Virus record (IMG/VR): IMGVR_UViG_2541047806_000003
Coordinates: 1-55,921 of that record
Direction: 5' to 3' (one strand)
DNA: 55,921 bases
DNA from: a virus
Taxonomy: Duplodnaviria; Heunggongvirae; Uroviricota; Caudoviricetes
Under the pieces are notes generated by a model, which did no database searches, had not been told where the DNA came from, and worked only from the letters and a program-made list of their open reading frames with translations. This document shows, one piece after another, positions 30,036 through 30,118 of this stretch (position 1 is its first letter; every line of letters begins with the position of its first letter). The position numbers and the translations under genes were made by a program.

Positions 30036-30061
30036 AAGCAAAAACCCGGCGCGGGGCCGGG
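30036..30061 (-). terminator. Strong hairpin terminator 16 nt upstream of holin RBS (tR'-like)
   Basis: Stem CCCGGC/GCCGGG followed on minus strand by TTTTTGCTTTG. Confidence 0.55.
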
Positions 30062-30089
30062 TAATTACAATTTCGCATTGTTAGGAAAT

Positions 30090-30118
30090 ATTTTAATCTG
30101 TTTGTTTACGCCCTACAA
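30090..30118 (-). promoter_or_regulatory. Candidate late promoter (TTGTAG-N17-TAAAAT) just upstream of the terminator
   Basis: Hexamers and spacing read from minus strand; arrangement resembles pR'-tR'. Confidence 0.3.

Follow-up and report, generated by a model that had tools for sequence, protein, structure and literature searches.

In the Q-lambda family of antiterminators (PF03589), the late-control cassette consists of the Q gene, the promoter PR', a sigma70-dependent pause element (SDPE) and a terminator; Q recognises a 13-bp Q-binding element (QBE), which in lambda lies between the -35 and -10 hexamers, and loads onto a sigma70-containing complex paused at the SDPE (PMC9388147). The lambda SDPE is AACGAT, occupies +1 to +6, is followed by GGG and gives a pause at +16 (PMC4005639). 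A different group of temperate coliphages, the Nus-dependent, non-lambdoid 'mEpimmI' phages, carries a Q-like gene and, in Gp17, an early antiterminator resembling lambda N, and is reported to be as frequent as lambdoid phages in human gut samples (PMC11893012). In this study, we analysed a 55,921-nt stretch of caudoviricete DNA (IMG/VR record IMGVR_UViG_2541047806_000003; hereafter the window), to which these phages (the mEp021 group: mEp010, mEp013, mEp021, mEp044, mEp515, mEp554 and MagusPhagus) are 88-92% identical around the locus of interest, the 106-nt gap immediately upstream of the holin gene. Judging from its sequence, this gap is probably the Q-lambda-type late promoter/pause/terminator unit of an mEp021-group phage. 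This proposal rests on the pause-element signature and on the presence of a Q protein, and not on the TTGTAG hexamer that the initial annotation had taken as the -35 element.

The features of the proposed unit and its putative trans-acting partner are as follows.

30113-30118, minus strand: TTGTAG, the -35 hexamer of the initial annotation (three of six positions match TTGACA)
30096-30107, minus strand: distal spacer AAACAAACAGAT, a candidate Q-binding element by conservation and position
30090-30095, minus strand: TAAAAT, -10 hexamer of the proposed late promoter (five of six consensus positions; invariant)
30077-30082, minus strand: AACAAT, a -10-like hexamer and proposed SDPE, 7 nt past the -10 (invariant)
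30040-30062, minus strand: intrinsic terminator, tR'-like (7-bp GC stem, 5-nt loop, T5 run; found by scan and annotated in relatives)
30020-30031, minus strand: holin ribosome-binding site (RBS) GGAGG (30027-30031) with its 7-nt spacer
36234-36956, minus strand: Q-lambda-family antiterminator of 240 aa, proposed trans-acting partner (PF03589; homology to lambda Q)

The holin ATG lies at 30019 on the same strand. Transcription is predicted to start at about 30083/30082, and AACAAT is followed in the window by GCG, not GGG. Between AACAAT-GCGAAA and the hairpin (30063-30076, minus strand) lies the only variable stretch of the block, in which positions +13, +19 and +20 switch together between a T..TT and a C..CT haplotype (AAATTGTAATTA and AAACTGTAACTA, respectively); 29 of 30 sequences retain TG at +14/+15.

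An AACNNT hexamer stands 5-7 nt past the -10 in lambda, P22, phi80, SfV, ES18 and Eho59, and the window has the same arrangement.

lambda: -10 TAAATT, gap TGACTC, element AACGAT
P22: -10 TAAATT, gap TGACTC, element AACGAT
phi80: -10 TAGATT, gap CATCTCT, element AACGCT
SfV: -10 TAAGAT, gap TTTTCC, element AACGAT
ES18: -10 TAATAT, gap CGTTTCT, element AACAGT
Eho59: -10 TATAGT, gap CCTAT, element AACACT
window: -10 TAAAAT, gap ATTTCCT, element AACAAT

According to the P22 record, the late RNA of that phage probably begins at the first A of AACGAT (position 1602), and the late terminator follows 30 nt further on (1632-1660). We fetched 67 further Q-lambda-family loci (65 distinct), whose Q proteins are 34-42% identical to that of the window, and searched the 160 nt after the Q stop codon for a -35, 16-18 nt, a -10, 4-8 nt and [A/T]A[C/T]NNT. 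A scan with a stricter -10 had given 21 of 61 loci; weak -10 hexamers (TAATTT, TAATCT) were seen on inspection, and the scan was then relaxed. In its relaxed form the signature was present after Q in 59 of the 65 distinct loci, compared with about 9/65 shuffled sequences, 4/65 reverse complements and 7/65 Q-coding controls. The gap between -10 and element was 6 nt in 42 loci and 7 nt in 10, and the elements were AACGAT (30), AATGAT (10), AACACT (9) and AACAGT (8). The arrangement TAAAAT-7-AACAAT of the window thus fits the family pattern as far as sequence goes, and no other site on either strand of the window has an AAC-type element together with a -10 matching at five of six positions and, within 75 nt, a terminator. 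A short leader is also normal in the family: counted from the pause element, 57 of 63 loci have their T-run at +50 to +69, a band to which the 194-nt leader of lambda is the outlier. The AAC-type signature (59/65 loci) is a practical aid to annotating Q-dependent late promoters.

The Q protein itself is clearly a member of the family. It matches PF03589 at 104 bits (cut-off 26.7), aligns to lambda Q (PDB 7UBM) with E = 1e-39 and shows 35-41% identity to Q of lambda, P22, phi80, SfV and ES18. Residues of about 115-147 form a CxxC...CxxCxGxG zinc-ribbon insertion (weak DnaJ_CXXCXGXG match) that lambda and P22 Q lack and that occurs in longer forms in the Q proteins of phi80, SfV, ES18 and Eho59. 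At the sequence level the locus therefore appears to have the makings of a Q-lambda cassette, namely a PF03589 protein, a pause element 5-7 nt past a -10 and a terminator ahead of the late genes; what it does not have is a unit immediately downstream of Q, since 6.2 kb separate the Q stop codon from the holin start in the window, and 2-7.5 kb do so across all 40 or more relatives. A late promoter right after Q was considered and ruled out, because the adjoining ORFs overlap or abut Q in both the window and mEp021, leaving no non-coding DNA directly 3' of the gene. A search for TTAAAAT-N7-AACAATGCGAAAT that might place the block beside Q in a classical lambdoid phage returned mEpimmI-type contigs only; the nearest non-mEpimmI Q is at most 42% identical, so that no intermediate was found.

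Compared with lambda pR'/qut/tR', the locus has a homologous Q, a -10 followed after 6-7 nt by AACNNT, a terminator between this element and the lysis genes, and a single direction of transcription through lysis into packaging and structural genes. It differs from lambda in the distance to Q (6.2 kb versus about 75 bp), in a -35 that is weak or absent where lambda has TTGACT, in having no -35-like TTGACT beside the pause element, in the position of the T-run (+39 versus +193), in an unrelated QBE sequence and in the zinc-ribbon insertion of Q. The likeness to P22 (P-late/gene 23), phi80, ES18 and SfV extends to the short leader with a terminator a few tens of nt past the start and to elements of the AACGAT/AACAGT/AACGCT type at a 6-7-nt gap; phi80, SfV and ES18 share the zinc-ribbon insertion, and phi80 and SfV also have a -35 with only three of six matches (TTGCAT). 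In all of these phages, however, the unit comes directly after Q and 300-450 nt before the holin, whereas that of the window abuts the holin RBS. The mEpimmI records (MH706966, PP180001-5) and their description (PMC11893012) share with the window the gene order, the hairpin (TERM_5, T9), the N-like Gp17 and the Q-like gene; they annotate the terminator and genes only and, as far as we found, describe neither a late promoter nor a pause element or Q site, and the supplements of the paper hold no terminator or promoter information. Early N-like antitermination has been studied in these phages, no description of a late switch was found, and a Q target beside the holin would give a testable model of late control.

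To assess the conservation of the block, about 50 related loci were gathered from phage records, E. coli prophages and IMG/VR contigs, giving a holin-upstream alignment of 37-43 distinct sequences. Among 43 distinct relatives, the block from 30107 to 30020 has a nucleotide diversity (pi) of 0.050, compared with 0.18 and 0.23 at the four-fold sites of the adjacent holin and endolysin genes. Pi is 0 for TAAAAT, AACAAT and the 3' stem arm and 0.013 for the 5' stem arm. Homology among differing phage contexts begins at 30107 and breaks down upstream. The distal spacer, at the start of this homology, has a pi of 0.052, and its conserved 12 nt, AAACAAAYRGAT (the AAACAAAC spacer block), of the form AAACAAA(C/T)(A/G)GAT, lie at -25 to -14 from AACAAT, where a QBE would be expected; they are our candidate for that element. 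In E. coli E21845 the block is about 87% identical and stands beside an HP1-type holin that is only 54% identical, indicating that the block travels as a unit, independently of the holin. More divergent HP1-type holin loci (Xenorhabdus and others) have unrelated upstream sequences, many with a terminator and none with the shared block, and are uninformative on the promoter.

The -35 hexamer behaves quite differently. The initial annotation had read the promoter as TTGTAG-N17-TAAAAT, and both hexamers are indeed found on the minus strand with a 17-nt spacing. As a pair, however, they match only eight of 12 consensus positions and are not among the sites listed by the promoter scan; pairs of equal quality occur at about 1.9 per kb per strand (217 sites in the window), so that the hexamers alone are at chance level. 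TTGTAG is also not conserved: its pi is 0.31, and in 12 of 37 distinct relatives it is replaced by an unrelated TCGCGC-type sequence (…CATAATCGCGCATAAAAAACAAATAGAT-TAAAAT), in which none of the spacings from 15 to 19 yields a -35-like hexamer. Among the TTGT-type variants the TTG is retained, and the -35 variant that a relative carries showed no association with the variant of its Q protein (240 or 242 aa). MagusPhagus, an isolated phage, carries the replaced variant, which argues that the unit can probably do without TTGTAG.

The terminator is very likely real and is already annotated in relatives. The hairpin ACCCGGC-CCCGC-GCCGGGT (30062-30044) has a 7-bp stem with six G-C pairs and a folding energy (dG) of -12.8 kcal/mol, is followed by TTTTGCTTTGTT and begins 27 nt after TAAAAT, which bears out the earlier claim of a strong GC hairpin and T-run within about 30 nt of the -10. 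The T-run had been said to end 16 nt before the holin RBS; the gap from T5 to GGAGG is in fact 8 nt. The hairpin was picked up by the terminator scan and is listed as a terminator in the records of mEp021 (TERM_5), mEp010 (T9), mEp013, mEp515 and mEp044, and folding of the 106-nt gap beats all 200 shuffles (z = -3.15). The stem and T-run have a pi of 0 to 0.013 and the 5-base loop one of 0.22, substitutions in the hairpin being nearly all in the loop; a fixed stem with a loop free to vary is the pattern expected for a structure under selection.

For unmodified polymerase, the hairpin certainly also closes the upstream operon, and the block might be a terminator without a promoter. On this account the hairpin would end a delayed-early operon comprising Q and the small-ORF array, late genes would be reached by polymerases from the early promoter made resistant through Gp17 at nutR2 or by Q loaded elsewhere, and the conserved upstream sequence would serve another purpose, for example RNA stability or holin translation. 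The single direction of transcription from repressor to structural genes agrees with it, as does the Gp17 homologue encoded in the window, which has the arginines pointed out in PMC11893012. That paper lists t5, presumably the mEp021 TERM_5 and hence this hairpin, as an experimentally demonstrated terminator; moreover, the promoter hexamers are at chance level with an unconserved -35, and the consensus RNA fold has an outer helix and pairs CUAACAAUGCGAAA with the U-tract and the bases that follow it. An RNA element of this kind is, however, without support from covariation, there being none in a fold where everything is invariant. The window offers no better late-promoter site, and no non-coding DNA follows Q directly. 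Chance would produce the family signature in only about 14% of comparable sequences, and TAAAAT with AACAAT conforms to it. Because a terminator alone would leave Q without a loading site and the TAAAAT/AACAAT arrangement to chance, we rate this explanation below a Q-dependent unit and regard it as rather unlikely.

Several observations weigh against a Q-dependent late promoter at this site. The conserved 12 nt have no recognisable similarity to the lambda QBE. The -35 matches three of six positions or is absent, and there is no TGn extended -10, so that promoter strength is doubtful; the -35 elements of the family mostly match at four or five positions, the TTGCAT of phi80 and SfV being at three. 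AACAAT itself is not among the elements of the family loci, and the GCG after it replaces the GGG of lambda. Q is 2-7.5 kb away in every relative but within about 100 nt in family members, and with its T-run at +39 the leader is shorter than those of all 63 comparators. As the block is almost wholly invariant, its conservation does not single out the promoter elements. Finally, for the lysis step considered below, the first transmembrane domain (TMD1) of the holin has a mean Kyte-Doolittle (KD) value of 1.68 compared with 0.44 for that of the phage 21 holin S21, and a SAR-like (SAR, signal-arrest-release) exit from the membrane is uncertain.

Alternatively, Q might load here without local initiation. 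Polymerases arriving from upstream that keep or regain sigma70 would pause at TAAAAT and/or AACAAT, and Q bound to the adjacent conserved DNA would load onto them. A -35 that is dispensable in a viable phage, two invariant -10-like hexamers 7 nt apart and a site that receives transcription from 2-7.5 kb of upstream DNA, Q included, would all agree with such a scheme. Yet all characterised Q proteins load at a promoter-proximal pause (PMC9388147, PMC4005639), in 59 of 65 family members a promoter -10 and its pause element are spaced just as TAAAAT and AACAAT are, and the scheme is without precedent; we consider it very improbable. Put more broadly, there is a slim chance that the block is a Q-loading and termination checkpoint independent of a conventional local promoter, at which Q of -35-less phages such as MagusPhagus would load on sigma70 polymerases paused at TAAAAT/AACAAT after travelling 2-7.5 kb from the early promoter, or else that initiation there does not proceed through -35 recognition. 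Under both versions a lambda-type Q would be uncoupled from its gene as well as from a canonical pR'.

We thus favour a Q-dependent late switch, which would work as follows. Sigma70 RNA polymerase would start about 7-8 nt past TAAAAT with a weak or absent -35, sigma70 would re-bind at about +1 to +6, where AACAAT lies, and a pause of the complex would follow within the first 15-20 nt. Without Q, the RNA would end at the GC hairpin and U-run as a transcript of about 45 nt. With Q, supplied by the early rightward transcript, the protein would bind the conserved stretch that immediately precedes the -10 and load onto the paused complex, and the modified polymerase would ignore this and later terminators, transcribing the genes for the holin, SAR endolysin, spanins, terminase and structural proteins. 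The same hairpin would halt unmodified polymerases arriving from the small-ORF array, while those modified by the N-like Gp17 homologue would probably pass it too. The transcription start, the pause, the binding of Q here, the dependence on Q and the size of the pinholes are all predictions. Should they hold, the Q-lambda cassette could work at a distance from the Q gene, with a very short leader and without a -35; the known mechanism is left unchanged by these results.

The initial annotation had placed this pR'-tR'-type unit before a pinholin/SAR-endolysin cassette. Its overall idea is upheld by the Q protein, the AACAAT element, the selected terminator and the homologies of the lysis genes, while TTGTAG as the -35 and adjacency to Q do not hold. 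The genes of the lysis cassette are listed below.

29819-30019, minus strand: class II holin of the HP1 family (PF16080), 66 aa, two hydrophobic segments
29327-29818, minus strand: SAR endolysin, a GH24 lysozyme of the R21 type (PF00959; homology to 3HDE)
28869-29339, minus strand: Rz-type i-spanin (PF03245, 87.5 bits; PHROG Rz-like spanin)
28937-29131, minus strand: Rz1-type o-spanin embedded in Rz (PF06085, 40.6 bits; LSGC in the ORF)

The endolysin aligns with phage 21 lysozyme (PDB 3HDE) over residues 5-159 with E = 1.6e-63 and with RrrD with E = 1.5e-64. These alignments span the Ala/Gly-rich N-terminal segment, which is 59% Gly/Ala/Ser/Thr (61% in R21) and contains no cysteine, and the sequence shows the E-8-D-5-T catalytic motif. 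The earlier recognition of a SAR-type N-terminus thus agrees with its alignment to the SAR segment of phage 21 R, and the protein is very likely a SAR endolysin for which membrane tethering and release are predicted. It is about 65-70% identical to R21, SAR segment and catalytic motif included, and differs from it in a linker between the SAR segment and the catalytic Glu that is six residues shorter.

The holin had been described as a small two-transmembrane protein, as its 66 aa and two hydrophobic segments confirm. It matches the HP1 family (PF16080) at 57 bits (cut-off 28.8), while its score for phage 21 S (PF04971) is 24.2 bits, under the cut-off of 26, so that by Pfam it is no member of the S21 family. 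HP1 Hol kills E. coli without lysis or leakage of beta-galactosidase, behaves as a pinholin and is needed, along with the SAR endolysin, for phage release (PMC7312051). It is this family membership that makes it quite likely, by analogy, that the holin of the window is a pinholin; the topology data for HP1 are unusual (C-out), and mechanistic transfer from it is indirect. The pinholin pairing of the initial annotation is retained, with an HP1-family holin and an R21-type endolysin. The small two-segment HP1-family holin followed by embedded Rz/Rz1 spanins resembles the cassettes of phage 21 and HP1; unlike phage 21, the holin has a single start codon and no obvious dual-start antiholin. It could instead be a canonical class II holin that makes large holes, the endolysin being freed by general membrane collapse as in P1. 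Its score under the Pfam cut-off for phage 21 S and the fairly hydrophobic TMD1 (mean KD 1.68) would suit this possibility, and SAR endolysins can work with canonical holins, P1 LydA not being essential for release (PMC7312051). Against it stand the clear membership of a family whose founder kills without lysis or enzyme leakage, a similarity to the S21-like EssD over the full length and across both hydrophobic segments (29% identity, E = 3e-6) and a TMD1 with 56% Gly/Ala/Ser/Thr, close to the 58% of S21 TMD1; we consider large holes possible but doubtful. If the holin is a pinholin, the Sec-exported endolysin would stay tethered by its N-terminal segment until the small holin depolarises the membrane, and would then be freed and activated.

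Of 5,426 complete E. coli genomes, 34 carry identical or near-identical prophages. From the repressor region through the structural genes all genes are transcribed in a single direction, in the minus-strand order cI-like repressor, Gp17 homologue, recombination and methylase genes, NinG-like and RusA-like genes, Q-like gene, about 25 small ORFs, the unit described here, lysis and terminase; 3' of the unit lie the holin, endolysin, Rz/Rz1 and then the small and large terminase genes. The first two of these genes are as follows.

46042-46689, minus strand: cI-like repressor (gene list)
45251-45541, minus strand: Gp17 homologue, an N-like antiterminator of 96 aa (motif NARERRRIKR; R17, R19, R20, R21 and R24)

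The arginines R17, R19, R20, R21 and R24 of the Gp17 homologue are those highlighted in PMC11893012; a Pfam search with this protein gave no match. Rfam and tRNA scans of the whole window found nothing. In the mEp044 record (PP180004.1; locus at about 597-797) the holin coding sequence is unannotated and a 108-nt ORF is annotated across the terminator instead; the DNA still carries an intact 66-aa holin ORF, and the absence of the holin from the record looks like an annotation gap.

The array of about 25 small ORFs (30800-36233, minus strand) is a mosaic of universal and highly variable ORFs. Its segments at about 35300-34300, 33950-33350 and 31250-30800 occur in all 35 related loci and the others in under 10-50% of them; from Q to holin the array measures 2 kb in mEp021 compared with 6.2 kb in the window. 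With an ORF threshold of 38 aa, the stretch from Q to the holin has just two non-coding gaps of 35 nt or more, namely the unit and 32352-32255. The latter (32255-32352, minus strand) contains the hairpin GGCATTG-TTTCGG-CAGTGCC followed by ATTTTGTT, which may be a second internal terminator. A promoter-like site at 35100-35072 (TTAGCA-17-TATGAT followed by GATAAT) scores better than the unit; it was rejected as the main candidate, as it and the hairpins at 34587 and 34445 all lie inside packed overlapping small ORFs. The terminator-like hairpins with T-runs at 34426-34445 and 34567-34587 (minus strand), the first being AAGCGGGATAAAACCCGCTT followed by TTTTTG, lie inside predicted small ORFs of a universally conserved segment. 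The best terminator-like site on the plus strand (31802-31821; eight pairs, six of them G-C, then GTTTTATG) opposes all genes here. The small ORF that abuts the regulatory block differs between relatives, and in the window the adjacent 58- and 59-aa ORFs upstream of the unit (30126-30478, minus strand) are paralogues, both matching phrog_15318 with E <= 1e-30.

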